Source: Actinomycetota bacterium
Lineage (GTDB): Bacteria; Actinomycetota; Aquicultoria; UBA3085; Oleimmundimicrobiaceae
Direction: 5' to 3'
Length of the DNA stretch: 64,000 nt
Assembly (NCBI GenBank): GCA_030017835.1
Contig: JASEGU010000004.1
Location: 6,445-70,444, forward strand
Each line of letters starts with the position of its first letter. Position 1 is the first letter of the stretch. This document shows, piece after piece, positions 2,696-64,000 of the stretch. The notes below the pieces were generated by a model. The model was not told where the DNA came from. It did no database searches and saw nothing but the letters and a program-made list of their open reading frames with translations. A program made the translations under genes and the position numbers.

Positions 2696-2720
2696 TATGG
2701 ATGAGACATTAGGAGGAGAT

Positions 2721-12078: not shown

Positions 12079-13014
12079 AGCAAGTTCGACTATCCTTGAA
12101 ACCAGATCTCCCATGTCCATGCCGGCCGCCTTGGCCGCATCGGGAAAGAGGCTTAAAGGGGTCATGCCCGGACTCGTGTTTATCTCCAGAACGTACGGCG
12201 TGCCGTCCTTTGAGACGATGAAGTCGACCCTGGAAAACCCCCGGCAAAACAGCATCTTGTGGACTCTGGTGGCGAGTTTTTGCGCCGCTTCGTTCGCCGC
12301 CCCAGGAATTCTGGCCGGAATCACATGATGACTCATTCCGGCGGTATACTTCGATTCATAGTCATAGATTTCACCCTCATAGGTGATCTCTAGGGTGGGA
12401 AGGGCAACAAGATCGCGGTTTCCAAGAACGCCGACGGTAATCTCCGTCCCCTCTATATGCTCCTCCACCAATACCTCTTCGTCATAGCGGAAGGCCTCCT
12501 TAAGGGCCGGACCAAGATCGGCCTCCTCCTTGACGATGCTCATCCCGATGGTCGACCCTTCGCAGGCTGGCTTGACGACTAGGGGTAGGTCCAGCTTAGA
12601 GATAATCTCCTTAAAAGCGTCTTTGGCCTCAAAAATAAAATCCGACCGCGTAAGGGGAATGAACTCGGCGGTCGGTACGCCCTCAAATTTGAGCAGTTTT
12701 TTGGTGACGATCTTGTTGAGACCAAGGGCGCTCGCCAGGATCTTGGAGCCGGTGTAGGGTATGCCGAGGATCTCGAGAAGACCCTGGATCGCTCCGTCCT
12801 CCCCCAGGCGGCCATGGAGGGCTATGAAGGCCACATCAGGCCGGGCCTCCTTTAGGCGCTCCGAGATATCTATATCCAGATCTATCTTGATTGCCTGGTA
12901 GCCCCGGCCAGCCAGGGCCTTGTAGGCCTCTTCGCCCGAGATGAGGGATATCTCCCTCTCTTTGGAGCTGCCGCCGCAGATTATCGCCACTCTAAGTCCG
13001 TTCATGTCCTCCAC
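12061..13014 (-). CDS. ddl: D-alanine--D-alanine ligase (paralog 2)
   Basis: LRVAIICGGSSKEREISLISG…EINTSPGMT is an ATP-grasp Ddl. It is a second copy, divergent from the one at 2721. Confidence 0.85.
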   Translation of the reverse strand: MEDMNGLRVAIICGGSSKEREISLISGEEAYKALAGRGYQAIKIDLDIDISERLKEARPDVAFIALHGRLGEDGAIQGLLEILGIPYTGSKILASALGLNKIVTKKLLKFEGVPTAEFIPLTRSDFIFEAKDAFKEIISKLDLPLVVKPACEGSTIGMSIVKEEADLGPALKEAFRYDEEVLVEEHIEGTEITVGVLGNRDLVALPTLEITYEGEIYDYESKYTAGMSHHVIPARIPGAANEAAQKLATRVHKMLFCRGFSRVDFIVSKDGTPYVLEINTSPGMTPLSLFPDAAKAAGMDMGDLVSRIVELALEEPK

Positions 13015-13358: not shown

Positions 13359-15515
13359 TTATCTCTCTTCTTCTACAATAATATATAAGAGAGCGACAAT
13401 TGCAAACATTATGGTTGCCGCGGCAGCGGCCGCTCCGGTGTCGTTGAAGATGAAGGCGGCCAGCGCCCCAGATGAGGTGCCAATAAAGCCCGCGACCAGG
13501 CTGGGGCGCTCCCGCTTAAGCTTATCGAAGAAGCCGACCGGGCGGAAGAAGAGCATCGGGGAGACGAGCAGGGTGGCAAGGAGTATCCTCGTCCAGACCG
13601 TATATTTCATGCCCCGGTAATTCATGGCTATCTTCCGTCTTGTGATTTCCAACAGCTCCTTTACCCCGCCCTCGTAGATCATCATGACGCTCCGCCCCGC
13701 ATGGCTGGTCGCCCCGCCCCGAAATATGTCTATGGCCAAAAAGATGAGAAGGGCTCCGAGGGCGGCTCCGGCGACGTAGAGAAAGTGCCTCCTTTTGAGC
13801 GAGCCCTGAAACAGGACTATCAGAGTGATGGCGAAACCGACCGAGGCGGCTATGGTTCCTCCGACGTTGGCTCCCAGGGCGGGATGTCCTATCGCCACCA
13901 CCACGGCCGCAAACATCAGGCCGGCCAGAAGATGGTGCGCTCTCAATCGAAGCTTCTTTACATCGAGCAAGGATGTTATGCCGATTATGCTCGCCCCGAT
14001 CAGAATGCCCATATATTCGTTTCCGATGCCGTAAAATCTGGCTCCGATGTTGGGACAGTAGCCCAAGATTGAGGTCCTTATGAGGTTCCAGCCGGTCATC
14101 ATGTCAAGGGTCAGGATGACCACGGTCAAGAGGCAGATCAGGACTATCGGCATAAGTTGCGAGCCCTTGAAATAGCGGGCGCACATGACGATGGCGCCCG
14201 CTATGGCTGATACGAGGAGAATCGGCAGAATCATGTGACCGTAGTCGATGGGGGCGAATATTTCGAAGGCCACGGGTATGCTGAGCAGCCAAAGAAAGAT
14301 CACCTGGATGGCCCCCACCAGTCTCTTTGGGATATTTTTGAAGAATGAAACAAGGGCGGCCAGGATGACCATTATCGAAACTAAGGTAACATAGCCTTTG
14401 AGCAGCGGGACTCTGGCTATCGCTTTATTCTCATACCTGGTGCTCATCCGCCCCATGTAAGATGGGTCAACCCTTCTGTCCAAGAACCTTATTGGCCTGC
14501 CCGTCATCTCCTCTCCCTTTTCGGCGCCGAGGATGCTCAAGATGGTCGGGGCGATATCGGTGCTGTCGACTATCCCAGGCCACCTGGTCGTATCCGAGAT
14601 CAAAAGGCCTCCATCGACGCTAGCTCCGATCATAATTGCGGGAGCCAGAAAGTTGCCCCGCTCCATCGCCTCAGGCGGGTTGGAGGGAGCGAGGAGCATT
14701 AGGGTGGTATCATCACCCAAGATGCTCAAAACCTCGCCAAGATAGCGGTCGACCGCCTCCATCTTGAATTTGCGCCTCTTGATGATGGCCTCTTCCGTAT
14801 ATAGATTATTTCTGCTCTCAAGACGAGTCGTATCCCCGAGCTCGACGACCAGAAGGTCGGATGTGGCAAGCAGGTCCTTGGTCTTTGTAAAGAGCGCGGC
14901 GTAGTCGGTTATCGTTCCCGTCTCTTTAGAGATAGTGTTGGTCGCGGCCGAGACGTCGCCAAGGTAAGTCAAGCCCAGCTCGTCCATGGTTATCAATGAG
15001 GCCTCCCTGTGAGGCTCGCCCACGTTATCGCCGTTTCCAATGAGGGCCGCCTTGAGGCCACCCTCCTTTAGGGCTTTGCCCAGAGAGCCCGGCAGGTTGC
15101 TTCTGGGGATCGTCTTCGAGGTGGCTATGATGTTGGCGATCGAAAGGTTGGCTATGCTGCCCAAGGGAGGCTCGATGCCGGTCCTCTGGAGAAAGATGTC
15201 GGACGCAAGGATTCCGCTTGGATGGACCTCGTCCCGGTTGAAAGATTCGCCAGCCGTCCCGCCCGTCTTGGTCTTTGCCCCGACTCCAATGCAGAGATAG
15301 CCGTCATAAGGGTTTGGACCCGCCTGGGTCCTGACGTTCATGAGGCCTGCGGCGCCCTCTTTGGCAATTTTTGATAGGTTCGGCGCCGCGGCCTCGGCAA
15401 GCTCGCTCGCCCCAAGACCGTTGGTGATGACCATGATAACTTTTGGTTTGGCTTCTGCGGCCGCCTTGGGCGCGCCTCCCAGGGCGGCCGCAAGTAAAGA
15501 GATGAGGGCGAACAA
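13359..15515 (-). CDS. large membrane protein with an N-terminal exported alkaline-phosphatase-superfamily-like domain and a C-terminal polytopic (about 10 TM) domain
   Basis: Signal peptide, then a domain ending with the sulfatase/LtaS-like motif DIAPTILSILG, then many TM helices. Family assignment is tentative. Confidence 0.5.
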   Translation of the reverse strand: MFALISLLAAALGGAPKAAAEAKPKVIMVITNGLGASELAEAAAPNLSKIAKEGAAGLMNVRTQAGPNPYDGYLCIGVGAKTKTGGTAGESFNRDEVHPSGILASDIFLQRTGIEPPLGSIANLSIANIIATSKTIPRSNLPGSLGKALKEGGLKAALIGNGDNVGEPHREASLITMDELGLTYLGDVSAATNTISKETGTITDYAALFTKTKDLLATSDLLVVELGDTTRLESRNNLYTEEAIIKRRKFKMEAVDRYLGEVLSILGDDTTLMLLAPSNPPEAMERGNFLAPAIMIGASVDGGLLISDTTRWPGIVDSTDIAPTILSILGAEKGEEMTGRPIRFLDRRVDPSYMGRMSTRYENKAIARVPLLKGYVTLVSIMVILAALVSFFKNIPKRLVGAIQVIFLWLLSIPVAFEIFAPIDYGHMILPILLVSAIAGAIVMCARYFKGSQLMPIVLICLLTVVILTLDMMTGWNLIRTSILGYCPNIGARFYGIGNEYMGILIGASIIGITSLLDVKKLRLRAHHLLAGLMFAAVVVAIGHPALGANVGGTIAASVGFAITLIVLFQGSLKRRHFLYVAGAALGALLIFLAIDIFRGGATSHAGRSVMMIYEGGVKELLEITRRKIAMNYRGMKYTVWTRILLATLLVSPMLFFRPVGFFDKLKRERPSLVAGFIGTSSGALAAFIFNDTGAAAAAATIMFAIVALLYIIVEEER

Positions 15516-23877: not shown

Positions 23878-24221
23878 TTAATAAGATCTTCCGCTCTTCT
23901 TGTGAGCCTTCTAAGCGCTTTTTCAATCTCGTGATAGCTCTTTCCTTTTATCTTTCTTCTGGCAATAAACACTATATCGGTGGACTTATTAAGCTCCAGC
24001 CCACTCAAACGAAACGCCTCTTTGAGGCGTCGCCTTATCCGGTTCCTCTCAACCGCCCCTCCGAGCTTTCGGCTGACCGAATAGCCGACCCGGCTCTGGC
24101 CGGTGCCTCCGTTTTTTAAAATTAACATCACCAGGAGGTCATTTTTTATGGCCCTGCCTTGAGCATAGACCTTTTCAAAATCTCTCTTGCTTTTCAGGCT
24201 TGCCGTTTTGCTTTCGCCCAT
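23874..24221 (-). CDS. rnpA: ribonuclease P protein component
   Basis: 115 aa basic protein with the RNR motif ([14 protein letters not shown]), downstream of rpmH. Confidence 0.9.
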
Positions 24222-24233
24222 GCCTGGCCCCTG

Positions 24234-24368
24234 TCAGGCTGAGATCTTGGCCCTTCCTTTTCGGCGCCTTGCGGCCAGGATTGCTCGGCCAGCCCTCGTG
24301 CTCATGCGCTTTCTAAAGCCGTGGGTTTTTTTTCTTTTTCTTACATTGGGCTGAAATGTTCTCTTCAA
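24234..24368 (-). CDS. rpmH: 50S ribosomal protein L34 (TTG start)
   Basis: Hand translation of the minus strand gives (M)[43 protein letters not shown]. The ORF track missed it because it starts on TTG and is only 44 aa. Confidence 0.85.
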
Positions 24369-24526
24369 GTATATCTTCCTTCTCTCGTTTAGCTTGCCCG
24401 TTAAAACTGAGTAATTATAGCGTGGGCCATTTGGGGTGTCAAGAAAAATGAGGCATTCTTGACATTAAAAAACCTGTTAGTCGGCGCCCTTCTTCTCTCC
24501 CGCCCTAGTCACCAGCGGCAAAATTT

Positions 24527-24535
24527 TGATATAAT
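24527..24535 (+). promoter_or_regulatory. extended -10 promoter element (TGaTATAAT) directed toward the GHKL-wHTH ORF and dnaA
   Basis: TGATATAAT at 24527-24535, with a weak -35 (TAGTCA) 18 nt upstream. Confidence 0.35.
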
Positions 24536-24634
24536 TTATTGGAAACTTTGGCGCTTTTTGAAGCGGCTTGAAAAGGATGAAAAGAGACTCTCGCCCCGAA
24601 AGGGCTTTTCTTCTCTGTTTTCTAAGCCTTTTCA

Positions 24635-24660
24635 TTTCTTTCCACATCTGTGGAAAGAAA
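24635..24660. promoter_or_regulatory. perfect 12-bp inverted repeat with 2-bp spacer containing two inverted DnaA-box-like 9-mers (TTTCCACA / TGTGGAAA)
   Basis: TTTCTTTCCACA-tc-TGTGGAAAGAAA. It sits upstream of dnaA in the rpmH-dnaA intergenic region. It could be an oriC element or the operator of the adjacent wHTH protein. Confidence 0.5.
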
Positions 24661-24763
24661 TGTGTAAAAGTGCGCCATTAGCCCTGTTGGCATGCTTCAT
24701 GAAAAAATTAATCTTTGGCTGAAGCTTAAGACGTCCTTGGTCCGGTGAGCTCGGCCGAACTCT

Positions 24764-25648
24764 TTGCGGGCCCCATCTTGGGCGGATACTTTTGTGGAGG
24801 AAGCTGTGAACAAGTTTTTGGAGAGGGTCCTGTCCGAAAAAGAAGATGCTAAAAAAGAGAGCCTCGCTCGGGAGGCCGCCCCTTCTTGCGCTGAGGAGAA
24901 GGGGGCCTCTTCCTTCAGGGGGTTTGCGCGAATAGCAATATATGACTCTCTCTCTTCGCCGCCACAGATAATTGAGCTCTCCTGCCAGGACCGCCAAGAG
25001 TTCATCGATTCTCTGGGAGCCAAGATATATCAGCTCTCTCACGAAGGGGGCGGGAACGCACCCTTTGCCGCCATCAAGGAGCTGGTCGAAAACCTCATAC
25101 ACGCCTCCTTTAAGGAGGTCGTCGTCACGATCCTAAACAAGGGGAACACCATAAGGATAGCCGACCAGGGGCCGGGAATCGCAAATAAAGACAAGGCCCT
25201 TGAGCCCGGTTTCTCGACTGCCACCAGCGAGATGAAGCACATCATAAAGGGGGTCGGCTCGGGCCTTCCAATCGTAAAAGAAATAGTGGGCCTATCAGGT
25301 GGGGTCATGAAGATAGAGGACAATCTTGTATCTGGGTCGGTAATAACCATGGAGTTTAAAAAGATCCCCGAGCTGGGCGGGGTAGAATTGCCCGCCAAAA
25401 AGAAGCCTTCTCCCCTTACGATGACGCTTTCCAATCGGCAAAAAAAAGTGTTATTCTTAGTTGCTGAGGTCGGCCCAATCGGTCCCTCAGAGATGGCCTC
25501 TGAGCTAAGCATGAGCCTTAGCACTGCCTATAGAGACTTAAGGTCTCTAGAGGACTTGGGACTACTTAGGGCTGACGACAGGGGCCGAAGGGTCTTGTCC
25601 CAAGAGGGCGTCGACTTTATGGAAAACTTTTTCGACCAAACAGGGTGA
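24764..25648 (+). CDS. GHKL (histidine-kinase-like) ATPase fused to a C-terminal winged-HTH, immediately upstream of dnaA
   Basis: N-box ELVENLIHASF, G1 ADQGPGI, G2 GVGSGLPIVKEIV, and a C-terminal MarR/ArsR-like wHTH (VLFLVAEVGPIGPSEMASELSMSLSTAYRDLRSLEDLGLL). The stop is 4 nt before the dnaA ATG. The start is uncertain; GTG/ATG alternatives lie downstream of 24764. Confidence 0.55.
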   Translation: MRAPSWADTFVEEAVNKFLERVLSEKEDAKKESLAREAAPSCAEEKGASSFRGFARIAIYDSLSSPPQIIELSCQDRQEFIDSLGAKIYQLSHEGGGNAPFAAIKELVENLIHASFKEVVVTILNKGNTIRIADQGPGIANKDKALEPGFSTATSEMKHIIKGVGSGLPIVKEIVGLSGGVMKIEDNLVSGSVITMEFKKIPELGGVELPAKKKPSPLTMTLSNRQKKVLFLVAEVGPIGPSEMASELSMSLSTAYRDLRSLEDLGLLRADDRGRRVLSQEGVDFMENFFDQTG

Positions 25649-25652
25649 TTTC

Positions 25653-27002
25653 TTGCAAGCAGACATCGCGGAGGCCTGGAAAGAGGCCGTAAAACAATTA
25701 AAGGCTGGGATGAGTGCTCCCATATCGAAGGCTTGGTTCGATAACACCTCGGCGGTTGATATGTCAAATGGTGTCGTCTTTATATCGGCTCCCAATAATT
25801 TCATCAAAGAGTGGCTCGAGACAAGACACGTCGACTCAATAAAAGAGACCCTGTCGGCTATCTTAAACGAGGATGTGCTCGTAAGCTTCATTTCTAAAGA
25901 GTTAGAAGGGGTCGCCACGTCGCCCAGGACCAAGATTCAATCAAAACCGCCAGAGACCGAGGCGAGGGGTGGGGCCGGCCTCTTAAATTCAAAATATACC
26001 TTCGAAGCTTTCGTGATCGGAAGCAGCAACCGGTTCGCCCACGCCGCCGCATTGGCCGTGGCGGAGCTTCCTTTTAAGGCTTACAACCCGCTGTTTATCT
26101 ATGGCGGCGTGGGCCTTGGAAAGACTCACCTGCTGCAGGCTGTCGGCAACTATGTCTCCCAGCATAACCGCGAACTTAAAATTAGGTATGTTTCGACGGA
26201 GAAATTTACCAACGACTTCATCAGCTCAATTGGAGATAGGGGCAAAATCTCTGGTTTTCAAAATAAATATCGCAAAGTTGATGTGTTGATGATAGACGAC
26301 ATCCAGTTTATAGCCGGCAAGGAGGCGACCCAAGAGGAGTTCTTTCACACATTTAATAATCTATATGAAGCGAATAAGCAGATGGTTATCACTAGCGACC
26401 GCCCACCAAAGGATATCTCAACCCTAGAAGACCGCCTTCGTTCGAGGTTTGAGTGCGGCCTCATCACCGATGTCCAGCCACCTGATCTGGAGACAAAGAT
26501 AGCCATTTTAAAGAGAAAGCTTAGCGATAACGACGTCGTCTCTTTCGAGGTTTTAGAGTTCATTGCTTCCAGGGTCCACTCGAATATTAGGGAGCTTGAG
26601 GGGGCGCTGACTAGGGTTCTTGCCTTTTCCTCCTTCACAAAAACCCCGATAGATATTAAGCTCGCCGAGGAGGTTTTAAGGAATATATTCTCAAACAAAG
26701 AGAGCCGACCGATATCGATTCAGGCCATACAGAATGAGGTCTGCCGCTTTTTTGGGATTTCAAAAACCGAGCTCGTCGGAAGCCGGCGGAGTCAGCCGAT
26801 TGTTTATCCTAGACAGATTGCTATGTACCTATCGAGAGAATTAACTGATATGTCTCTTCCAAAGATCGGCGAGGAGTTTGGTGGAAGAGATCACACAACG
26901 GTGATGCACGCCAATTTAAAGATAGAAAGGCTAATAAGCGAAAGGCGGGAGATATATAACCAGATTCAGGAGTTAATTAATAAGATAAAACAGAGATCTT
27001 AA
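25653..27002 (+). CDS. dnaA: chromosomal replication initiator DnaA
   Basis: AAA+ Walker A GGVGLGKTHLL, plus domain IV with the basic-loop/HTH C-terminus. Confidence 0.95.
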   Translation: MQADIAEAWKEAVKQLKAGMSAPISKAWFDNTSAVDMSNGVVFISAPNNFIKEWLETRHVDSIKETLSAILNEDVLVSFISKELEGVATSPRTKIQSKPPETEARGGAGLLNSKYTFEAFVIGSSNRFAHAAALAVAELPFKAYNPLFIYGGVGLGKTHLLQAVGNYVSQHNRELKIRYVSTEKFTNDFISSIGDRGKISGFQNKYRKVDVLMIDDIQFIAGKEATQEEFFHTFNNLYEANKQMVITSDRPPKDISTLEDRLRSRFECGLITDVQPPDLETKIAILKRKLSDNDVVSFEVLEFIASRVHSNIRELEGALTRVLAFSSFTKTPIDIKLAEEVLRNIFSNKESRPISIQAIQNEVCRFFGISKTELVGSRRSQPIVYPRQIAMYLSRELTDMSLPKIGEEFGGRDHTTVMHANLKIERLISERREIYNQIQELINKIKQRS

Positions 27003-27215
27003 TAACTCTAAGCCTGTTGATTATTTGTGTATCAATTATTAACAATTTTGGGATTTAAAAATTTCACAACTTTTATTAATAGTTCTAAATAATTTATTAG
27101 ATGTTTGTGAACAATTAAGAGACGGGGCAAGCTCTGTAATTAACAATTCAACAAGCTCTAATATTATTACTATTTTTATTTATTAATATATCAATCAATA
27201 CTAAGAGGTGTTTAA
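27003..27215. promoter_or_regulatory. oriC-type AT-rich dnaA-dnaN intergenic region (DNA-unwinding element plus degenerate DnaA boxes)
   Basis: About 25% GC over 213 bp, against about 58% for the surrounding window. Degenerate boxes TGTGTATCA (27026-34) and TGTGAACAA (27106-14). There are runs of TTATT/ATTAA. Confidence 0.55.
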
Positions 27216-28319
27216 ATGTTTATCACTTGTGAGCAGAAAGAGTTATTGGAAGAGATTCAAGTAGTTCAAAAGGCCGCATCCATCCGGAGCACCCTCCCCA
27301 TCTTAAGCGGCATACTTTTTAGCGCTTCGGCCGGCAGGCTACATCTTACCACCACCAACTTGGAATTATCTATACATTCCAGCCTGCCGGCCGAAGTCAA
27401 AGAAGAGGGATCTTTAGTCGTTCAGGCTCGCCTAATTGGAGAGATCATTAAAAACCTTTCTGATTTAAAAATAGAAATGTTTTTAGATTCCTCCACAAAC
27501 CAACTAAAATTAACCAATTCCAAGTCGGTCTTCAATATAAAAATCCTTTCGCCAGAGGACTTTCCAAAGTTTCCCACGGCCGAGTTGGACAATCAGTTCA
27601 CCATCAAGTCGGAAGACCTCTCTAACGCTATAAGACAGGCCATAAAAGCCGCCTCTATTGATGAGACTCGGCCCATCTTGACCGGCGTCCTTATTGTAGT
27701 AAATAAAAATAGGTTAAAGATGGTTGCCACCGACAGCTATCGTTTAGCCATAAAAGAGATCCCAATAATCAACAAAGAAGACGTCAAGATAAAGGCCATC
27801 ATTCCCTCAAGAACGCTCGGGGAGCTTCTTAAGATTGTCTCTGATGGACGGAGCGAAGTAGTGGTGGGAGAGATGGGAAATCAACTCGCCTTTAAGATTA
27901 AAAATACCACCCTGATAACTCGGCTAATAGAGGGGCAGTATCCAAACTATCAACAGATCCTCCCAGAAAAGTATGAGATGAATTTTGTGGTGGATCGAGA
28001 AAATCTTCTTGGCGCCGTAAAGAGGATATCCTTATTTACCCAAAGCAACTCTTTAATAAAAATGGCGGCAAGAGATGGCTCTCTTGAGCTCAGCGCCTCT
28101 GCTGCTGAACTTGGTGAGGCCAAAGAGGCAGTAGATTATAGGGGGACGGGAGACGGATTGACAGTGGCCTTTAATAGTCAATATCTGATCGACGGCCTTA
28201 GTAGTATTCAGGGAGAGGAGGTATCCTTTGATATGATAGACAACATGAAACCGACCTCAATCACAGGAGACAAGAAGGATGACTTCCTCCACCTCTTAAT
28301 GCCGGTTAGAACCGGATGA
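27216..28319 (+). CDS. dnaN: DNA polymerase III beta sliding clamp
   Basis: 367 aa, three-domain clamp, canonical position after dnaA. Confidence 0.9.
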   Translation: MFITCEQKELLEEIQVVQKAASIRSTLPILSGILFSASAGRLHLTTTNLELSIHSSLPAEVKEEGSLVVQARLIGEIIKNLSDLKIEMFLDSSTNQLKLTNSKSVFNIKILSPEDFPKFPTAELDNQFTIKSEDLSNAIRQAIKAASIDETRPILTGVLIVVNKNRLKMVATDSYRLAIKEIPIINKEDVKIKAIIPSRTLGELLKIVSDGRSEVVVGEMGNQLAFKIKNTTLITRLIEGQYPNYQQILPEKYEMNFVVDRENLLGAVKRISLFTQSNSLIKMAARDGSLELSASAAELGEAKEAVDYRGTGDGLTVAFNSQYLIDGLSSIQGEEVSFDMIDNMKPTSITGDKKDDFLHLLMPVRTG

Positions 28320-28355
28320 TAAAATATATTATTATATTAAAAAATAGGAAAAAGA

Positions 28356-29468
28356 TTGCATCTTTTTAGAGCAGAGCTCCTCAGCTTTAGAGGTCACAAA
28401 GAGGCTTCATTCGAGCCCATCCCTGGCATAAATGTGATAATCGGTGATAATGGCTGCGGCAAAAGCAACCCGCTAGAGGGAATCTTCGTCCTTATGAGAG
28501 GGAGGTCCTTTGGGACGAGCCAAGACGATGCTTTGATTCAACTCGGAGAGAGGGCGTCGGTAATTAGGGGGAGGTTTAAGGGAGAGAAGAGAGACTCTAA
28601 AATCGAAATGGGCATAAATGCTGACGCCGGAAAAGAGATTAGACTGAACGGCTTAAGGCTGGAGAAATTAAAAGATCTTAAGAGTTCTTTTGGAATAGTC
28701 ACCCTCTCTCCTGAGGATCTTAAGCTCGTCAAAGGTGGCCCCGAAGAGAAGAGGGCGCTCATGGATGAGGCTGGGGGGCCCTTGGCCCAAAATATGACCA
28801 TGCGAGGATGAGCCCTTTTAAGGTTTTAAAGCAACGAAACAACCTCTTAAAACAGATCAAATTTGGGAGAGCAGGCCCGCTCAAGCCCTGAGATATGGAA
28901 CGAGAGACCGATCATAACCGGAAAGAGGTTGATGGATGAGAGAAGAGAGACGGTTCAGCCTTTGAGCGAAGTCTGTCAAGATGTCTTCAATGAGATTTAC
29001 GGCCAGAGGCGCAGCCTGAGCCTAATGTGTTCGAACGAAATCTTTAAAAAAGACTCTCCGTCGAGGAGCCTCTCAAAGACCTCTTGGAAAAAGGGGGGGG
29101 CCGATGAGATTGAAAGGGGAACAAGCCTCATCGGCCCCCATAGAGACGACCCAACGATCCTTCTTGGGGGAAAAGAGGGGCCCAGGCCATATGTCTCCCA
29201 GGGCGAACAGAGGGCCATCAGCTTGGCCCTGAGGCTGGCCCACTATGAGCTCTTGTGTAGAGATGAACACGGGATGAACCTGTTTCTAATGGACGACGCC
29301 ATGTCGGAGATGGACGAGAAGAGAAGAGACAACCTCTTAAATTTCATCTCCGGGCTCAAACAGACCACAATCACCAGCACAAATCTCTACTACTTCAAGG
29401 ACGAGCATCTTAAAATGACGAACCTGATTGAAATGGGAGAAGGCGAGAGGAAGAGCAAGGCTTGTTGA
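28356..29468 (+). pseudogene. recF: recF disrupted by two compensating frameshifts (N-terminus and C-terminus in frame 0, middle ~100 nt in another frame)
   Basis: N-terminal Walker A GDNGCGKSN in frame 0. The middle segment …LGPKYDHARMSPFKVLKQRNNLLKQ… is in another frame. The C-terminal signature LFLMDDAMSEMD is back in frame 0. Frame 0 has three in-frame stops over 28809-28850. Shift sites are a G6 run at 28773-28778 and about 28855-28870. Confidence 0.7.
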
Positions 29469-29908
29469 GGGACATCAAGGATGTTTTACGAGACCTAATA
29501 TCCGACCTCAACATGGGCAAGCTGATGGAGGAGGCCAGGATCGTAAGGGGCTGGAGAGATATAGTCGGCGAGCACGTCGCCGAGAATAGCTCCCCAATCT
29601 CGCTTGTGCGCGGCACCCTCTTGATAGGAGCCTACAATTCAGCCTGGTCGAATCAGCTCAGCATGATGAGGACAGGCCTCGTGGAGGAGATAAACAGCCA
29701 CCTTGGCAGAGAGGTCGTAAAAGAGATAAGGTTCAAGCTGATCGAAAAGGCGAAGGAGGAGAGCGATGAGGCCGCCCCCGAAGAACGCACGAGTCTTTTT
29801 GGCGAGGGAGAGAAAAAGAAGATTCTTGGCGATCTCTTGTTAAATGTCGAGGATGCTGAGGTGAGAGAGAGCCTAAAAAGGGCCATTTTCCTAGATGATC
29901 AAAAATGA
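29462..29908 (+). CDS. DUF721 (DciA-like) protein
   Basis: Position between recF and gyrB, as Rv0004/YaaB. …RIVRGWRDIVGEHVAENSSPISLVRGTLLIGAYNSAWSNQL… matches the DUF721 pattern. Confidence 0.65.
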   Translation: MLRDIKDVLRDLISDLNMGKLMEEARIVRGWRDIVGEHVAENSSPISLVRGTLLIGAYNSAWSNQLSMMRTGLVEEINSHLGREVVKEIRFKLIEKAKEESDEAAPEERTSLFGEGEKKKILGDLLLNVEDAEVRESLKRAIFLDDQK

Positions 29909-29912
29909 TTAA

Positions 29913-31850
<1,938 letters not shown>

Positions 31851-55697: not shown

Positions 55698-56105
55698 TTG
55701 GTAAGACCGGTCAAGTGCAGAAGGGTCTCCTTCGCTCCGGATCACCGTTATTTCAAGCCGGCCGGCGTCCCCTTAAGCGAGCTTGCCGAAACTGTACTCA
55801 GCCTAGATGAGCTCGAGGCGGTCCGCTTGGCCGACCTGGAAGGGCTTTATCAAGAAGAGGCTGCAAAGAGGATGAACGTCTCGAGACAGACCTTTGGCAA
55901 CATCCTCTCTTCGGCCAGGAGAAAGATCGCCGAATCTTTGGTTGAGGGCAAGGCATTAAAGATCGAAGGGGGCCAGGTTCACCTGGCTGCAAAGAGAATC
56001 TTTACCTGTCATGACTGCGGCCACAGATGGGGCCCATGCTTTGGAGAGCGGCGGCCGCTCGGATGCGAGGTCTGTCAAGGCAAAAATATATACCGCTCAA
56101 AATGA
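55698..56105 (+). CDS. DUF134-family putative DNA-binding protein with C-terminal Cys4 zinc ribbon
   Basis: MVRPVKCRRVSFAPDHRYFKPAGVP…LDELEAVRLADLEGLYQEEAAKRMNVSRQTF is the DUF134/sigma-70 region-4-like HTH. The C-terminus carries CHDCGH…CEVC. Confidence 0.65.
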   Translation: MVRPVKCRRVSFAPDHRYFKPAGVPLSELAETVLSLDELEAVRLADLEGLYQEEAAKRMNVSRQTFGNILSSARRKIAESLVEGKALKIEGGQVHLAAKRIFTCHDCGHRWGPCFGERRPLGCEVCQGKNIYRSK

Positions 56106-56165
56106 CCGGCCTAAGCCTCTTGTCAAAACCGGTAAGGTCGGACAAAAACCTGAAAGGAGAGAGAG

Positions 56166-56540
56166 ATGAGAATATGTATCCCAACCAAAAACGATGAGGG
56201 CCTAGCCTCGATAGTCTATGGTCACTTCGGGAGCGCCCCCTACTTTTTGGTCTACGATACGGAGACTTCCAAGATGGAGGCGATAAACAACTCCGACCAA
56301 GGCCACGAGCACGGCAGGTGCAAGCCTTTGGCCTCTTTTGTTAACCATCCGATAGATGCCGTGGTAACCGGAGGAATCGGTCTTAGGGCTATGGAACGTT
56401 TAAGCCAAGGCGGCGTCAAGGTCTATCGCATGGTCAGTGAGCCCACCGTTTTAGAGGTGATTGAGAAGTATCGCCAGGGCTTATTGGAAGAGATAGCCCT
56501 AGATGATGCCTGCTCCCACGATCACGACTGCAATCATTAG
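56166..56540 (+). CDS. NifX/NafY/NifB-C-terminal-like dinitrogenase cofactor-binding domain protein
   Basis: MRICIPTKNDEGLASIVYGHFGSAPYFLVYDTET…AVVTGGIGLRAMERLSQGGVKVY matches the PF02579 pattern. Confidence 0.7.
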   Translation: MRICIPTKNDEGLASIVYGHFGSAPYFLVYDTETSKMEAINNSDQGHEHGRCKPLASFVNHPIDAVVTGGIGLRAMERLSQGGVKVYRMVSEPTVLEVIEKYRQGLLEEIALDDACSHDHDCNH

Positions 56541-57401: not shown

Positions 57402-57494
57402 GGAGGGGTGGCTGAGTGGCCGAAGGCGGCGCTCTCGAAAAGCGTTAAGCTCCTAATCCGAGCTTCGAGGGTTCAAATCCCTCCCCCTCCGCCA
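57402..57494 (+). tRNA. tRNA-Ser (anticodon CGA)
   Basis: GGAGGGGTGGCTGAGTGGCCGAAGGC, loop CTCGAAA, long variable arm, CCA. Confidence 0.8.
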
Positions 57495-57598: not shown

Positions 57599-57979
57599 AT
57601 GAAGGACCAAATACTCTTATATCGTGAAATGTGTGATGCAGAAAAAGTTCAAACCCTACAAAGGGGAATGAATTATCGATTAAATACAAAGTGCTCGGTG
57701 ATCTTAATGTCTCAACGCTCTAACGCACCATATAATGACAAAATACATGATGATGGAATTACCATTGAATATGAAGGCCATGACATCCCGAGAACAAAAT
57801 ACGAAATGAATCCGAAGGAGTATGATCAGCCATATGTAACGATAACCGGGCGACTTACACAAAACGGGCTTTTTGCCAAAGCCGCAGAAGATTATGAGAA
57901 CAAGAGACGCGAAGCAGAAATTGTCAAGGTTTGTGTAAAAAATCCTTTTGGGCGCATGGTCAGAAAAAGGATTTTTTAG
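57599..57979 (+). CDS. hypothetical protein in AT-rich islet (possibly the N-terminal domain of a disrupted HNH nuclease)
   Basis: 126 aa, low-GC codon usage unlike the flanks. The 3' end overlaps the next frame at an A5/T6 run. Confidence 0.35.
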   Translation: MKDQILLYREMCDAEKVQTLQRGMNYRLNTKCSVILMSQRSNAPYNDKIHDDGITIEYEGHDIPRTKYEMNPKEYDQPYVTITGRLTQNGLFAKAAEDYENKRREAEIVKVCVKNPFGRMVRKRIF

Positions 57980-58304
57980 GCTTGTAGACTTTTGCTACAC
58001 AAGCGATGGGAAGAGAAGAGTTTTTCGTTTTGTGCTCGAAGAGACAATAGTTAATTTTGAAAATAAGAACTCCAAAGAGGATAGATTAAAGCCCAGAACA
58101 AGGGTTATCCCAACGCAAATAAAGAAGATCGTTTAGGAGAGGGATAATGGTAGGTGTGTTATATGTGGGGCAAGGGACGAGCTCCACTTTGATCACGACC
58201 TTACTTACTCAAGGGGCGGAACCAGCATTTCGCCAAAGAACGTTAGAATTCTTTGCGCAAGACATAACTTATCTAAATCAGCAAAGATTGAATGGTCTTC
58301 ATAA
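57948..58304 (+). pseudogene. HNH endonuclease remnant (frameshift at 57965-57975 plus in-frame TAG at 58134)
   Basis: After the TAG, the same frame encodes RCVICGARDELHFDHDLTYSRGGTSISPKNVRILCARHNLSK, which is an HNH motif (C-x2-C … HFDH … N … C-x2-H-N). Confidence 0.6.
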
Positions 58305-58454
58305 AATCTATTTGTATCCAACGCGGACATAAATTTTTTGCCTATCCCTTAAGCTTTCTCTCAGCTTTCCTTGCTATCCTAAGCCACACAACAACCTTGA
58401 TGGTAAAATGTTTATGCAAGCCTTTTGCCATCCAAAAACTTGGAGGTGTTAACG

Positions 58455-58741
58455 ATGGCACGGGACAAATGTAAGACCAACATCGTAGTCGATATCGCTT
58501 CAGCGGTCGCCTTCCTTCTCTCCTTGGTCTCGGGGATGGTCCTCTGGCTGGTCCTTCCTTCGGGCTCGGGCTTTCAGGGGGGCGCGGGAGCGGCGGGGCC
58601 GCCTATCTTCTTGGACTCGGCAGACACGACTGGCTGGCCATCCACATAGTTTTTAGCGTGGCCTTGGCGCTTTTGGTCGGATATCACCTGATCCTTCACT
58701 GGTGTTGGATCAAGAGGATTCCGGCTATGATGGAGAAGTAA
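58455..58741 (+). pseudogene. DUF4405-family small membrane protein with frameshift at a G7 run (about 58577-58583)
   Basis: MARDKCKTNIVVDIASAVAFLLSLVSGMVLWLVLPSG… in frame 1, and …RHDWLAIHIVFSVALALLVGYHLILHWCWIKRIPAMMEK in frame 2. Confidence 0.5.
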
Positions 58742-58759
58742 ACGATCAAAGGAGGCTAA

Positions 58760-58969
58760 ATGGGCATATTCGGATGGGCAAACGAGAGGGCAAAGCTTTT
58801 CGGCAACTTGCTCGACATAAAGCTTCTGGCCTTTACCGCCTTCATGCTCGGGCTTATCTTGGCCAAACCCTTTCCAGTCATATTGAGCCTGGATATCTGG
58901 TGGTATCTGATCATCTTCATCATGATTTCAGCTCGCACCTATTACGTGATGTTCTTCAAAAAGCTATGA
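58760..58969 (+). CDS. hypothetical small membrane protein
   Basis: 69 aa with two hydrophobic helices. Confidence 0.3.
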   Translation: MGIFGWANERAKLFGNLLDIKLLAFTAFMLGLILAKPFPVILSLDIWWYLIIFIMISARTYYVMFFKKL

Positions 58970-59035
58970 TGGTAATTGGGTCAGGCTTAGCCTAAGCGGG
59001 CAGGCTTCTGTCGGAATCTTAAGGGGGGTTGATTT

Positions 59036-59739
59036 ATGGATAAAGCCGGTAAATTAAAGCTCTTTTCGATTCTAAATTTTTGTATCTATTTTGCCATGGT
59101 TTATGTAAATTACCTGGCCGTAGCTCTGCCTCTGGGCGGCCGGGCGACCCTAGAGCTCTCCGATAAATACCCGAGCCTCTTTACGCCGGCCTTACCTTCT
59201 CCATCTGGGGTCTTATGTATACCCCTCTTCTGATCTTCGTCATTTACGGCCTCAAGGAGGCCCTTGGGGGCGGTCAGGAAACTGACTTCTTGGCCAAAAT
59301 CGGACCCCTCTTCATCGTATCGTCGCTTGCCAACGTCTCCTGGATCTTCGCTTGGCACTTTGAGAAGGTCGCCCTTTCGCTTCTCATCATGCTCGTCATC
59401 CTCGCAAGCCTGATCGTAATCTACCTGCGCCTTGGCACGGGAGCTTCTCAACCGTCAAAAGGAGAGGCCCTCTTCGTTCGACCCGCATTTAGTATCTATC
59501 TGGGTTGGATATCGGTTGCCACCATCGCCAACGTATCGGTCCTCCTCTTGAGCTTGGGCTGGAATGGATTTGGCATAAGCGCTGAATCCTGGACGGTCCT
59601 CATGATCGCTGCCGCCACCATCCTTGGATTGCTAGCCGTTAAGCTAAAGGGGGATATCTTCTATGCCCTGGCGATATATGCTGGGCGCTCCTTGGGACCA
59701 TCATCAAGAGGCTTTCGGTGGGGCCCTCTCCCATCATGA
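59036..59739 (+). pseudogene. polytopic membrane protein split by a frameshift near 59160-59175
   Basis: Frame A reads …GGRATLELSDKYPSLFTPA and frame B reads …LYAGLTFSIWGLMYTPLLIFVIYGL… Both halves are hydrophobic and read as one protein of about 235 aa. Confidence 0.4.
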
Positions 59740-59817: not shown

Positions 59818-60399
59818 ATGGCTCATAAATTCGATCCCAAAAAGATGCATAAGCTCGACTCGGCCGAGAGGAGGAGGCTTCCTCCAAAGGAGACCCTCTT
59901 AAAGCTCGGCCTGCGCGAGGGAGACGCTGTGGCCGATATCGGAGCCGGTATCGGCTTCTTCTCATTTGCGGCAGCCGAGATAGTCGGCAAAGCGGGCCAC
60001 GTTGCGGCCTTCGATATCTCGCCCGAGATGATAGATGAACTTAAGGTTCGAATCGAGAAGGCAAAAACCCAAAACGTCTCAGCCATCCTTTCAAAAGAGT
60101 ACTCCTTCCCGGCCGAAAAGGGGACCTTCGACTTCGCGCTCATGGCCAACGTCCTTCACGAGGCCCAAGATAGAGCCCTCTTTTTGAAAGAGGCGGCGGC
60201 CCTTTTGAAGGCGGGCGGAAAACTTGCCATTATAGAGTGGAAGAAGAACACCTTAACTGCTCTGGTCGGGCCGCCGCTGGGCGAACGCTTGACCGAGGCC
60301 GAAGTTTTGGCATTGCTTATCGAATTAAACTTTGCAGACATCAGCGCCATCGACCTCTCAAGCAACCATTTTGCGCTAACGGCCGTGAAATCTCATTGA
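59818..60399 (+). CDS. class I SAM-dependent methyltransferase
   Basis: Motif I DIGAGIGFFSFAAA, post-I acidic residue (AAFDIS), motif II/III. Confidence 0.75.
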   Translation: MAHKFDPKKMHKLDSAERRRLPPKETLLKLGLREGDAVADIGAGIGFFSFAAAEIVGKAGHVAAFDISPEMIDELKVRIEKAKTQNVSAILSKEYSFPAEKGTFDFALMANVLHEAQDRALFLKEAAALLKAGGKLAIIEWKKNTLTALVGPPLGERLTEAEVLALLIELNFADISAIDLSSNHFALTAVKSH

Positions 60400-60453
60400 T
60401 CATTTAATTCCCTCTCCAGCAAAAGATTAAATATTCTCATGACAAAGATTTGT

Positions 60454-60480
60454 AATAATTATTGATTAATAGCGATTATT
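60454..60480. promoter_or_regulatory. AT-rich imperfect palindrome; candidate Fur/PerR-type operator upstream of the fur-family gene
   Basis: TAATAATTATTGATTAATAGCGATTATT lies 30-60 nt upstream of the 60512 start. Confidence 0.25.
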
Positions 60481-60511: not shown

Positions 60512-60922
60512 TTGATAGCCGAAGAGAAGATAGAAAAGCTGAAAGAAGAGGGTCGCGTCCCAACCATCCAACGCCTGGCTGTGCTCGAGTTCATGGAGGG
60601 CAACTTAGGTCATCCCACCGTGGAAGAGGTATATAGGGGTCTTAAGGACAGATATCCCTCCCTCTCACAGGCCACCGTCTATTCTACCCTGGAACTCCTT
60701 CGAGATCTCGGTCTCTTGCGTGAGCTGACCATTCTGCGCTCCAAGGTCTGCTACGATTCGATAATCGAAGCTCACCATCATTTTTCTTGCAAGGCTTGCG
60801 GGCGCGTCTTTGACGTCGCTGTCGATTGCGCTATTCCCAAAAAGGATCTGATTCAAGGCAACAAGGTCGATGAATTCCAGGCTTATATCTACGGCACTTG
60901 CTCAAATTGTTTAGAAGGGTGA
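60512..60922 (+). CDS. fur: Fur-family metalloregulator (Fur/PerR/Zur/Nur-type)
   Basis: wHTH N-terminus, HHHF metal site and two CxxC pairs (CKAC…CSNC). Confidence 0.8.
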   Translation: MIAEEKIEKLKEEGRVPTIQRLAVLEFMEGNLGHPTVEEVYRGLKDRYPSLSQATVYSTLELLRDLGLLRELTILRSKVCYDSIIEAHHHFSCKACGRVFDVAVDCAIPKKDLIQGNKVDEFQAYIYGTCSNCLEG

Positions 60923-60978
60923 TTTTGAGAAGAAGATAAAGTTTTACAAAAATCGGTCAATCAACAACGGAGGAGTCA

Positions 60979-61629
60979 ATGAAAGAGATCTGCATCGAAC
61001 AAGCTAAGAGAAAAAGCATTCAAAGCCATGCGTGGCTACTTCTTCCCCTGATAGTCTTTGGCGGGCTTAAGTGGCCATATTTGGGCTTTGGGGTCCTTGC
61101 CATGATGGGCTTTTTCCTCGTCATGGCGGCGATCAAAGGGAGGCACTGGTGCGGCTGGTTCTGTCCGCGCGGCTCATTTCTCGAGCGCATACTGGAGAGG
61201 GTGAGCTTAAATGGGAGAGTGCCCGCGCTGCTCAAAACGGCCCCCTTTCGCTGGAGCGTATTTGCTCTCATGATGAGCTTTATGTCGTTTCGTCTGATTG
61301 GGACGGGCGGAAACCCGGTTAAGATCGGCTCGGTCTTCATAACCATGTGTATCATCACCAGCATATTGGCGATAGGGCTAGGCCTCATCTTCAAGCCGAG
61401 GTCCTGGTGCAGCTTCTGTCCGATGGGAACCCTTCAAGGGGTCTTGGGCGCAAGCAAGAATCTGGTCTCGATAGGTGAGGATTGTATCGACTGCGGCGCG
61501 TGCGGGCGGGTTTGTCCGATAGGTACGGTCGCCATGGATTTCAAGGATAGCGGCCGCGTCGCCAGCATCGATTGCTTGCGCTGCAGAGAATGTTTGGCCA
61601 AGTGCCCGGTCGGCGCCCTTGATTGTTAA
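60979..61629 (+). CDS. NapH/MauN-like membrane-bound 4Fe-4S ferredoxin
   Basis: TM helices carry the CGWFCPRG and CSFCPMG motifs. The C-terminus has two ferredoxin motifs, CIDCGACGRVCP and CLRCRECLAKCP. Confidence 0.7.
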   Translation: MKEICIEQAKRKSIQSHAWLLLPLIVFGGLKWPYLGFGVLAMMGFFLVMAAIKGRHWCGWFCPRGSFLERILERVSLNGRVPALLKTAPFRWSVFALMMSFMSFRLIGTGGNPVKIGSVFITMCIITSILAIGLGLIFKPRSWCSFCPMGTLQGVLGASKNLVSIGEDCIDCGACGRVCPIGTVAMDFKDSGRVASIDCLRCRECLAKCPVGALDC

Positions 61630-61650
61630 TCTAAAGAACGGGGAGCACGC

Positions 61651-62469
61651 ATGAAGCTGGTGATATATGGCAAGGGCGGAATCGGCAAGTCCACGACGAC
61701 CTCGAATTTGGCCGTCGCCTTTGCCAGGCGCAAAAAGAGCGTTCTGCAGATAGGCTGCGATCCCAAACACGACTCCACCTTTCCGATAGCTCACAGTCTG
61801 ATACCGACCGCAACCGAGGTCCTAGCCGAGAAAGATTTCAACTACGATGAGGTCGACAAGGACGACATCATCTTCACCGGTTATGAAGGGATAGCCTGCG
61901 TCGAGGCGGGCGGTCCGGCGGCCGGGGTCGGTTGCGCGGGATATGTGGTCGGAGAGACGATTGGGCTCCTTAGCGATCTTGGCGCTCTGACCGCCTACGA
62001 TATAATCCTCTTTGATGTCCTTGGCGACGTCGTCTGCGGCGGCTTCTCGGTGCCGCTTCAACATGCAGATTACGCGGTAATCGTTGCGACTAACGATTTC
62101 GATAGCCTCTTTGCGGCCAACCGGATCGCCGCCGCCGTGGCTCAGAAGGGCAAGTCCTATCCGGTAAAATTTGCCGGCATGATCGCAAACCGCTGCAGCA
62201 AGAAAGATCTCATCGATGCTCTTTCGGCTAGGCTCGACTCCAAGACGATAGGCCTTATCGAAGAGAACTCCTCAATCCGTACCTCTCGTCTCGGCGGCAA
62301 GACCATCTTCGAAGCGGCCGAGAGCGACCCTGCCCTTGTGGCGCTTACCATGCCCTACATAGAGATAGCCGATTATCTGCTCTCAAACCCTGCCGCCCAA
62401 GAGACCCTGCCCCTCTCAGACCGCGAGGTATTTTCCCTCCTTACCGAGATTGAGTCCGCGGCCAAATGA
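61651..62469 (+). CDS. bchL: BchL/ChlL-like ATP-dependent reductase (NifH-family; DPOR L-subunit-like)
   Basis: [16 protein letters not shown]…[12 protein letters not shown]…[20 protein letters not shown]…[12 protein letters not shown]…LFAANRIAA…DREVFSLL. Both 4Fe-4S Cys ligands are present, and there is near-motif-identity to ChlL/BchL. Confidence 0.8.
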
Positions 62470-63734
62470 GTGAGGAGGCAAGGCTTGCCGTCTGCTACTA
62501 TTCATGGTGTCCGCTCGCCGCTATCGGCTGGTTTTCCAGAAGATTTGAAAATATTCACTTCATAAGCATCGGCATGCGCGAATGCGCTCACTTCATCCAG
62601 ATGGGGCTTTCTCGCCGAGGAGAACACGGGCTTTGCTTCTCTTTGGCCCTGCTCGAGGAGGAGGAGATCGCCACGGGTGAAATATATGAGCCGCTTTTAG
62701 AGATTGCCAAGGAGGCGGTTGGGGGTGGAGCCGAAATCATCGTCCTTATGGGCTCCTGCGCTCTTGAGATTATGAAGCTCGACCTAAAATCTCTGGTCAA
62801 GAGGCTGGGCGAGGAGCTTGGCGCAAAGGTTGTGGCCGCTCAATCTAGCGGCTTCTTCAAGGGCGAGGGGGAGGGGGAAGATATCATCATCTCGGCCCTT
62901 TTGGAGTTGATTAGTCCAAGCAGCGACGTCCAAGGTAGCCGAGGGGTTGTCCTCCTCGGTTCGGCCTCCAAGGAGACGGCGGCCGTTTTAAGGGCCGAGA
63001 TGGAGGCGCTCGGCATCTCCTTTGGCGGCTTCTTTCCCGGCAATAGCCCCTCTGATATGGCCAGGATCTCTAAAAGTTCTCTGGTTGCCCCGCTCTACCC
63101 CTATCTCTCCAAGAGCCTTCGAACGGTCAAAAATATTTTTGGAGCAACCATTTTGAGCTCGCTCTTTCCTCTGGGAGCCGACGGATCTGAGGATTTCTAC
63201 GGAGCGATCCTTCGCAAATTATCGCTGGACCCGGCCCCGCTTGCCGAAATGGCCAAGGAGGCTAGGGAGGAGGCGGGCGAGCGGGCAGCCCACCTGATGG
63301 AGAAGACGATCATGATAATTGGAAGCGGTCTTATAGAGCTGCCGCTCGCCCGCCTCTTTGCAGATCTTGGCCTAGGCGTTTTCGAGGTTAGCACGCCGAG
63401 CTTAAATGGCAGCCTTGCGGCGGAGCTTAATCGGTTGAAAGAGCTTGGGGTTGAGGTGATAGAGGGGGCCGATCTTTACGATCAGGTCAAAAGGGCCAAA
63501 GAGGCGGGGGTAGATCTGGTCTTTGCCCATCTCTCCTTGGCCAACTTCTTGAAGGAGAGCGGCTTTCTGACCGTGCCGAGCGCCGCCTATTTGCGCCTGG
63601 AGATGCTTGGTCTCGCTAACTCCAAAAATATCGTCGAGCCCGACCTCTACGGGAAACTGACCGGTCTTGCTCCCTTCTATCCCAAAGAACTCGAGAAGGA
63701 TCAGGTCATCACCATAAAGGGGCTTGGCCGATGA
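62466..63734 (+). CDS. bchN: BchN/ChlN-like subunit (nitrogenase component-1 family; DPOR N-like)
   Basis: [10 protein letters not shown]…[15 protein letters not shown]…[17 protein letters not shown] has three conserved Cys matching BchN Cys26/51/112. Translationally coupled to bchL (ATGA). Confidence 0.7.
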
Positions 63735-64000
63735 AGAGCGCAAAGTGGCTCTATGAGGGGCCGGCTATTTTTGGGGCGGCCATGATGACGGCAAGCCCTC
63801 GCGGGGCAAGCCTCCTCATTTTGGGAATGCTCGGCGACGGCTATCCTCTTTCCGAAATCGGTTTGGGCTTTGAAGTGGGCCGCCTTCCCGTCTCGACGAT
63901 CGCCCTCGGGCGGCGCGAGCTCTCGCTGGGGGCCCAAGAGAAGTTTTTGGCCGCCCTAAAGCGTCAGGACGAAGTGGTTTCCAACGGGGTTATAATGGTT
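63731..64000 (+). CDS. bchB: BchB/ChlB-like subunit (DPOR B-like), 5' partial; continues past the window end
   Basis: [21 protein letters not shown]…LILGMLGDGYP… matches the BchB N-terminus (MKLxxWxYEGPxHxGAMRVA…GPQGDTY), including the Asp36 equivalent. Confidence 0.65.
   Translation, partial: MKSAKWLYEGPAIFGAAMMTASPRGASLLILGMLGDGYPLSEIGLGFEVGRLPVSTIALGRRELSLGAQEKFLAALKRQDEVVSNGVIMV

Follow-up and report, generated by a model that had tools for sequence, protein, structure and literature searches.

At the 3' end of a 64,000-nucleotide stretch of an Actinomycetota genome, metagenome-assembled according to its NCBI label (assembly GCA_030017835.1, contig JASEGU010000004.1, positions 6,445 to 70,444; hereafter the window), the open reading frame (ORF) list places five genes on the forward strand at 60512-64000: a Fur-family gene, a gene for a membrane iron-sulfur protein of the NapH type, and an overlapping trio that we call L, N and B, the last of which is cut by the window end (Table 1). 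L, N and B together encode a NifH-type component (PF00142) and two PF00148 subunits, the composition of the BchL, BchN and BchB subunits of DPOR (dark-operative protochlorophyllide oxidoreductase). Their cluster ligands are those of the [4Fe-4S] cluster held between N and B (the NB-cluster) only, with no set for the iron-molybdenum cofactor (FeMo-co) or the P-cluster. ATGA overlaps occur at both the L/N and the N/B junctions and, together with the short gaps between the other genes, suggest that fur-napH-L-N-B is one transcription unit. An earlier reading of the sequence (the original prediction) had located all five genes and proposed that L, N and B are translationally coupled; the ORF list and the Pfam and NCBIfam matches bear out the positions, and the overlaps bear out the coupling. 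It had also named a profile search with PF00142 and PF00148 as a check, and all three proteins match these families with the E values listed in Table 1.

Table 1 Features of the L-N-B locus and of the DNA just upstream, in window coordinates
Feature	Position	Strand	Support or remark
DUF4405 membrane protein (frameshifted) and 69-aa two-helix membrane protein	58425-58969	+	tblastx synteny with locus L001, 1052-1676
Candidate Fur-family operator, 19 nt, TAATAATTATTGATTAATA	60453-60471	+	41 nt 5' of the fur start codon
Fur-family (PerR-like) regulator, 136 aa; opens the apparent operon	60512-60922	+	PF01475, E 2e-21
NapH/MauN-type membrane iron-sulfur protein, 216 aa	60979-61629	+	PF12801 (Fer4_5) twice, plus a ferredoxin domain of two clusters at the C-terminus
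L, NifH-family ATP-dependent reductase of BchL type, 272 aa	61651-62469	+	PF00142, E 9e-82; NCBI MDI6799478.1
N, BchN-like catalytic subunit, 422 aa	62466-63734	+	PF00148, E 1e-41
B, short BchB-like subunit, first 90 codons in the window	63731-64000	+	Full protein 399 aa, MDI6799480.1 (P0040); PF00148, E 4e-45

We first compared each subunit with curated family models. L scored 381 bits on the BchL model TIGR01281 (cut-off 345), against 213 bits for NifH, 211 for CfbC (cut-off 402) and 150 for BchX, and is 51-56% identical to BchL and ChlL proteins (51% to Roseinatronobacter BchL) versus 41% to Clostridium NifH. NCBI automatically names it BchL, and the motifs ascribed to it originally, a Walker A motif (residues 7-14) and both [4Fe-4S] cysteines (Cys95 and Cys129), are kept. 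N fell below both BchN cut-offs (TIGR01279: 237 bits vs 420; NF002768: 226 vs 324) and scored 65 bits on BchY; B likewise fell below both BchB cut-offs (TIGR01278: 221 bits vs 490; NF002789: 215 vs 509) and scored 64 bits on BchZ. Against true BchN and BchB proteins, the identity of both is 31% at best. The original description of all three as close look-alikes of DPOR subunits therefore holds for L but not for N and B, which stand at about half of the family cut-offs. Membership of the complex in the chlorophyllide oxidoreductase (COR), CfbCD or Nif families was considered and rejected, the hidden Markov model (HMM) scores lying far under those on the DPOR models.

The ligands of the NB-cluster are present as had been predicted. 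In an alignment to ChlN (2xdq), Cys15, Cys40 and Cys98 of N correspond to Cys22, Cys47 and Cys107 and are conserved in the clade described below, and Asp36 of B, the fourth ligand, lies in a GDGYP motif aligned with GD36TY of BchB.

B departs from BchB around the substrate. In DPOR, the protochlorophyllide (Pchlide) cavity is covered by the C-terminal helix of BchB, Asp274 donates a proton to C17, His378 feeds a propionate relay, and Arg48, Asp290 and His394 (Prochlorococcus marinus numbering) form the substrate hydrogen-bond network (PMC4071322, PMC13474568). Residue equivalences given here come from sequence alignment; Asp274 and His378 in R. capsulatus numbering are Asp290 and His394 in that of P. 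marinus. At 399 amino acids, versus 500-540 in BchB, B ends just before the GLE(E/H)HL lid helix when aligned with the solved BchB/ChlB chains and diverse BchB sequences. No match to PF08369 (PCP_red) was found in B even at E ≤ 1, a domain carried by all 20 true BchB matches and with an equivalent C-terminal region in BchZ. In place of the W-x-x-R-S-V-D274 motif of BchB, the alignment shows a gap of 10-20 residues, with Thr267 opposite Asp274, and His378 aligns with Asp370 within a clade-conserved SAPxDRF motif (here SAPADRF). Similarly, GTQMERH of BchB becomes GTYNEW, and Arg48 becomes Glu in actinobacterial and Lys in archaeal B proteins. GTYNEW and SAPxDRF are conserved across the bacterial and archaeal members of the clade. 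Two further candidates were set aside: the long C-terminus of archaeal N proteins as a stand-in for the PF08369 domain missing from B, which had no Pfam match at E ≤ 1, and Cys95 of BchB as a diagnostic residue, since true BchB of the Eremiobacterota type also has Ala there.

An AlphaFold2 (AF2) model of B (predicted local distance difference test score, pLDDT, 88; predicted template modelling score 0.90) matched BchB or ChlB in all of its top 15 PDB hits, with template modelling (TM) scores of 0.87-0.92, followed by nitrogenase K and NifN subunits at about 0.78. Because the model matches BchB/ChlB best and because the lid, the Asp274 loop, Arg48 and His378 are all changed, we conclude that the fold and the cluster site are DPOR-like and that the substrate site has been rebuilt.

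To place these proteins, we collected their relatives. A word-index search with N returned just the identical NCBI protein and one 74% identical relative before reaching true BchN, and a HMMER search with N, exhaustive over 1.84 billion cluster representatives, gave 124 matches, among which only P0002 (74%) and P0065 (43%) were closer than BchN. A collection of species-representative genomes contributed one locus, in Actinomycetota isolate TCF170221_bin_360 (JBBIRY010000016.1), and a scan of Joint Genome Institute (JGI) metagenomes with a B-specific motif contributed four contigs. The family is very rare: billions of proteins yielded it in three Actinomycetota-like genomes and on a handful of sediment contigs that are archaeal and low in GC.

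Combined with the outcome of searches with L and B, the loci sort into two subclades. Subclade A consists of the window and loci L001 and L018, with GC contents of 0.50-0.55, and in all three L-N-B comes after tadA and tRNA-Ser(cga) and then genes for a membrane protein with DUF4405 and for a small protein of two helices. These shared neighbours favour vertical inheritance; recent horizontal arrival on a tRNA-linked island was rejected, as all three actinobacterial genomes have the cluster behind tadA and that tRNA gene. Subclade B (L004-L006 and L012-L017; GC 0.38-0.42) is called archaeal because a split RpoB fragment that adjoins L-N, together with RpoH, at L017 (507-6751) scores best as archaeal RNA polymerase B (445 bits, versus 269 for Pol II and less than 100 for bacterial beta). 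Directly 5' of L, the archaeal loci carry a conserved Cys-rich, zinc-ribbon-like protein of 78-87 amino acids; their other neighbours vary by contig and include SufC and SufBD, ferredoxins, a gene for the gamma subunit of pyruvate:ferredoxin oxidoreductase (POR) and an oppositely oriented Hdr-like set. At L016, an insertion with an MmeI-type restriction-modification gene and a 203-amino-acid ORF separates L from N. The L, N and B genes are all intact in the three actinobacterial and in several archaeal genomes. Compared with L001, all five genes of the present locus have ratios of nonsynonymous to synonymous substitution (dN/dS) of 0.07-0.21 (0.12 for the NapH-like gene), rough values given that dS is saturated, and all five are under purifying selection.

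The searches also brought out two other DPOR-like types. L019 (591-4626; contig GC 0.36) has a DPOR-like L-N-B followed by a V4R/DUF2507 protein (V4R being a BchJ-type domain). In this cluster, N scores above the BchN cut-offs, and B (470 amino acids) reaches 306 bits against a cut-off of 490, with a weak PF08369 match and without Asp274 and His378. Signalling genes and a prismane protein neighbour it, with no photosynthesis genes among them. L011 (8001-10560; contig GC 0.68) is an N/B-like pair without an adjacent L gene, in which N lacks all three cluster cysteines and B is short (417 amino acids) with Glu in place of Asp36; it may be a non-catalytic derivative.

We placed the proteins in neighbour-joining trees with gamma-corrected distances and bootstraps, a crude method open to long-branch effects, using as references BchL/N/B, BchX/Y/Z and NifH/D/K sequences from annotated plasmids. 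Four N-like proteins formed a clade at 100% bootstrap outside all sampled BchN, and five B-like proteins formed a clade at 87% outside all sampled BchB, with BchY, BchZ and Nif further out than either. In a tree of concatenated N and B, the L019 type and subclades A and B formed one group, separate from proteobacterial DPOR, at 100%. For L, the proteins of the two subclades formed a clade at 86% that joined the L019-type L at 87%; this clade lies inside the BchL/ChlL radiation, with BchX and NifH outside at 100%. The original prediction had held that firm placement of all three proteins inside canonical BchLNB of a known phototrophic lineage, together with a full bch and reaction-centre complement, would make the cluster ordinary; by neighbour-joining, L does lie inside the BchL/ChlL radiation, and N and B do not lie inside BchN and BchB.

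The placement of N and B agrees with that of Nishihara et al., whose tree includes an actinobacterial BchNB-related clade outside DPOR and COR as an outgroup of uncharacterised function. The present cluster very probably belongs to that clade, which it fits by description, short of proven identity. The paper gives the clade no anatomy, context or function, and the archaeal subclade and the losses in B are added here. The notability claimed originally was accordingly overstated insofar as the clade already stands in that tree; its anatomy, archaeal branch, gene context and function are not described in the literature we searched.

Other nitrogenase-like systems share some of these properties. 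COR (BchX/BchY/BchZ), of the same Group V superclade, is a reductase of a tetrapyrrole ring whose catalytic [4Fe-4S] cluster is simple. It differs in that L, N and B score far lower on BchX, BchY and BchZ (150 bits for L, versus 381 on BchL), and in that BchZ has Cys at the position of Asp36 and keeps a C-terminal domain of the PF08369 type. CfbCD is likewise an ATP-dependent nitrogenase-like tetrapyrrole reductase of archaea with a simple [4Fe-4S] cluster; however, CfbD forms a homodimer in which Cys ligation is symmetric and that has no K/B-type partner, and L scores 211 bits on CfbC (cut-off 402). The Group VI NflHDK system of Elusimicrobia is, like the present cluster, an uncharacterised nitrogenase-like system of non-phototrophs. 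It has neither NifB nor the FeMo-co ligands, and its predicted substrate is a tetrapyrrole; its NflH forms a group of its own beside Group V, about 40% identical to NifH, and its loci are rich in radical S-adenosylmethionine (radical-SAM) genes (Meheust et al. 2020). We compared Group VI by description only and rejected membership in it, as L falls within the BchL radiation, with N and B beside BchN and BchB, and radical-SAM genes are missing from the neighbourhood.

Taken together, L-N-B is a conserved, selected system with an intact ATPase and NB-type cluster site and with a B subunit that lacks the Pchlide-specific elements, and it sits in non-phototroph-like genomic settings in both Actinomycetota and Archaea. 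We consider it likely that L-N-B is an ATP-driven, two-component nitrogenase-like enzyme that is of DPOR lineage and reduces something other than protochlorophyllide. In such an enzyme, the L dimer would take up low-potential electrons, here perhaps from the cytoplasmic Fe-S domain of the NapH-like membrane protein, bind ATP, dock on an N2B2 core and hand single electrons to the inter-subunit [4Fe-4S] cluster, which would in turn reduce a substrate held in a pocket at the N/B interface.

That substrate is probably not Pchlide, because B has neither the lid helix nor the C-terminal domain, the Asp274 loop is missing, and other residues stand in for Arg48 and His378. By analogy with related enzymes, it could be another planar tetrapyrrole or porphyrinoid of an anaerobe, a proposal whose chances we judge to be about even, with a non-tetrapyrrole as the next choice. 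We favour a tetrapyrrole because the characterised members with simple clusters (DPOR, COR and CfbCD) reduce tetrapyrroles and because the L019 cluster has a V4R neighbour. The strongest competitor is reuse of the DPOR-lineage scaffold to reduce some other recalcitrant bond in a non-tetrapyrrole, as in the reductases of methylthio-alkanes (Mar) and isethionate (Isr). There is family precedent for such chemistry (PMC13474568), about ten loci have been seen with no tetrapyrrole gene beside any of them, some archaeal loci neighbour Hdr-like, ferredoxin and Suf genes, and the hydrogen-bonding residues of the Pchlide pocket have all changed along with loss of the lid. Nevertheless, every characterised enzyme with a simple [4Fe-4S] cluster reduces a tetrapyrrole, Mar and Isr fall in Group IV, with Mar using complex nitrogenase-type clusters rather than the (Cys)3-Asp NB-cluster ligands and DPOR fold seen here, and a protein with a BchJ-type domain flanks the related L019 cluster. 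We therefore regard a non-tetrapyrrole substrate as rather unlikely.

The original prediction had offered two alternatives, an unrecognised chlorophototroph or a DPOR-like enzyme recruited to a different reduction, and our results favour the second. If this were a true DPOR, the organism would be an unrecognised chlorophototroph or maker of (bacterio)chlorophyll, and the short B would still reduce protochlorophyllide. The likeness is considerable: the L-N-B gene order, an L above the curated BchL cut-off that carries the BchL name at NCBI, the three cysteines of N and Asp36 of B, and a B fold closest to BchB, with an ATP-dependent electron-transfer mechanism that is probably the same. Yet B has lost a lid helix and a PF08369 region that both BchB and BchZ keep, along with the Asp274 motif, Arg48 and His378; N and B score at about half of the cut-offs and form clades outside all sampled BchN and BchB; and the sister subclade is archaeal. 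Moreover, the actinobacterial clade appears as an uncharacterised outgroup in Nishihara et al. The gene context argues in the same direction. No bch, reaction-centre or tetrapyrrole gene was found in the 64-kb window, in a relative's 17-kb contig or at any related locus, and the cluster thus stands outside any photosynthesis gene cluster, as had been remarked originally, in hosts that are an anaerobe-like actinobacterium and archaea. On these grounds, a true DPOR is very improbable. It is equally hard to credit that the cluster is a decaying, inactive relic of an ancestral (proto)chlorophyllide reductase, as the frameshifted ORFs nearby, the lost DPOR catalytic residues and the degenerate L011 pair might suggest, when L, N and B are intact in several genomes of both domains, dN/dS is low, the cluster ligands and ATPase motifs are all kept, and bacteria and archaea share GTYNEW and SAPxDRF.

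Several observations weigh against a DPOR-lineage reductase whose substrate is not Pchlide. Monophyly of canonical BchN and BchB to the exclusion of the N-like and B-like clades had bootstraps of just 35% and 46%, respectively. Confidence in the B model is lowest at the two rebuilt loops (pLDDT 60-70). It is by alignment that the proton donor counts as lost, and Asp272, which lies six positions downstream and is conserved in the clade, could substitute for Asp274. Apart from the V4R protein at L019, no tetrapyrrole, radical-SAM or cofactor genes lie beside the clusters. Genes of the Mg branch may possibly lie elsewhere in the genome, the scan having covered the 64-kb window and the related loci. 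Finally, neither L018 nor the archaeal loci have the gene for the NapH-like protein, a conjectured electron donor to L.

More tentatively, the short-B clade, found in deep-branching anaerobic Actinomycetota and in sediment archaea, may preserve a pre-photosynthetic role of the (proto)chlorophyllide reductase ancestor. That role might have been the reduction of a metal-free or non-Mg porphyrinoid to an undescribed reduced tetrapyrrole cofactor, with chlorophyll biosynthesis later recruiting the scaffold and equipping it with the lid domain at the C-terminus and with the proton relay of Asp274 and His378. Within their branch of the nitrogenase superfamily, DPOR and COR alone have been characterised, and each of them functions in photosynthesis. 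Here, a rare sister lineage in non-phototrophic anaerobes of two domains keeps the Cys3-Asp cluster and lacks the Pchlide-specific parts. The clade thus offers a testable handle on the role of chlorophyll-reductase ancestors before chlorophyll and a concrete enzyme to try on candidate tetrapyrroles.

There is also a practical consequence for annotation. The L proteins of the non-canonical clusters (L of the window, P0189, P0192 and P0196) score 375-381 bits on TIGR01281, and because these scores pass the curated BchL model (cut-off 345), NCBI names them ferredoxin:protochlorophyllide reductase. Surveys that use bchL/chlL as a marker of phototrophy could therefore falsely score these organisms as phototrophs, a systematic mis-annotation.

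We also examined the two genes that precede L. The Fur-family protein has PerR as its best NCBIfam match (87 bits, under the cut-off of 180), carries His34, His88-90 and the pairs Cys93/Cys96 and Cys130/Cys133, and is 82% identical to the L001 copy (dN 0.13). The AT-rich site TAATAATTATTGATTAATA is unique in the window at up to 3 mismatches and appeared in 0 of 100 shuffles. An identical copy lies at the identical 41-nt spacing in L001, whose proteins are just 58-86% identical, and in both genomes it belongs to a stretch of about 36 nt that is conserved while the rest of the intergenic spacer has diverged. This conservation fits a putative operator of the Fur/PerR type and autoregulation of the fur-napH-L-N-B unit, which would link expression to metal or peroxide status. 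A Fur-family regulator with a putative operator ahead of the cluster had indeed been foreseen, and both the PF01475 gene and the conserved site were found. A scan for promoters and terminators gave nothing beyond shuffle expectation, and Rfam returned tRNAs only, with no riboswitch near the cluster.

The NapH-type protein predicted before L is present with the expected architecture, namely hydrophobic segments, C58xxxC62P (CX3CP), C144xxC147P (CX2CP rather than CX3CP) and two CxxCxxCxxxCP motifs, and it scores 63 bits on the NapH/MauN model TIGR02163 (cut-off 213). The association of both genes with the cluster holds in part: they accompany L-N-B in two of the three actinobacterial loci (this genome and L001) and are absent from L018, where L directly follows methyltransferase remnants, and from all archaeal loci. 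Because of these absences, we regard fur and the NapH-like gene as a lineage-specific addition rather than part of the core.

Just 5' of fur, at 59818-60399, lies an intact gene for a class I S-adenosylmethionine-dependent methyltransferase (UbiE/ArsM-like, under all cut-offs), of which just remnants are present in L001 (about 1766-1960) and L018 (1780-2035). Further upstream, tRNA-Ser(cga) (57402-57494) is directly followed by broken or overlapping ORFs across 57599-59739, which reflect either an assembly error or gene decay. The ORFs at 57599-57979, 57948-58136 and 58147-58332 had no Pfam match, and a membrane protein is divided over 59036-59233 and 59215-59739; the idea that these membrane ORFs encode a TspO-like protein was dropped for want of Pfam support. 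In the same region, the DUF4405 gene is frameshifted between 58556 and 58622 and is intact in L001 (1155-1674) and L018 (1058-1639). The DUF4405 and two-helix genes are conserved upstream of the cluster in all three actinobacterial loci, and a functional link is uncertain.

The window as a whole bears out the genome context described originally, including the replication origin region, the pknB cluster, larBCE and a class V fructose bisphosphatase. It contains dnaA (25653-27002), dnaN, gyrB and gyrA, with the cumulative GC-skew minimum around dnaA/dnaN, consistent with a replication origin there, and the GC content drops to 0.43-0.49 at 24000-30000. The kinase genes form a pknB-pbpA-rodA-PP2C-FhaA-pknA cluster, and larB, larC and larE are all present. 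About 4 kb 5' of the L-N-B cluster, a DUF134 protein and a NifX-like protein (PF02579, the 'dinitrogenase iron-molybdenum cofactor' domain) are encoded at 55698-56540 among four tRNA genes; a NifX-like gene is also found near the archaeal loci L004 and L014. Lastly, a 718-amino-acid ORF (13359-15515) that has no Pfam or NCBIfam match lies near two D-Ala-D-Ala ligase paralogues, which are encoded within 10 kb of each other at 2676-3668 and 12061-13014.

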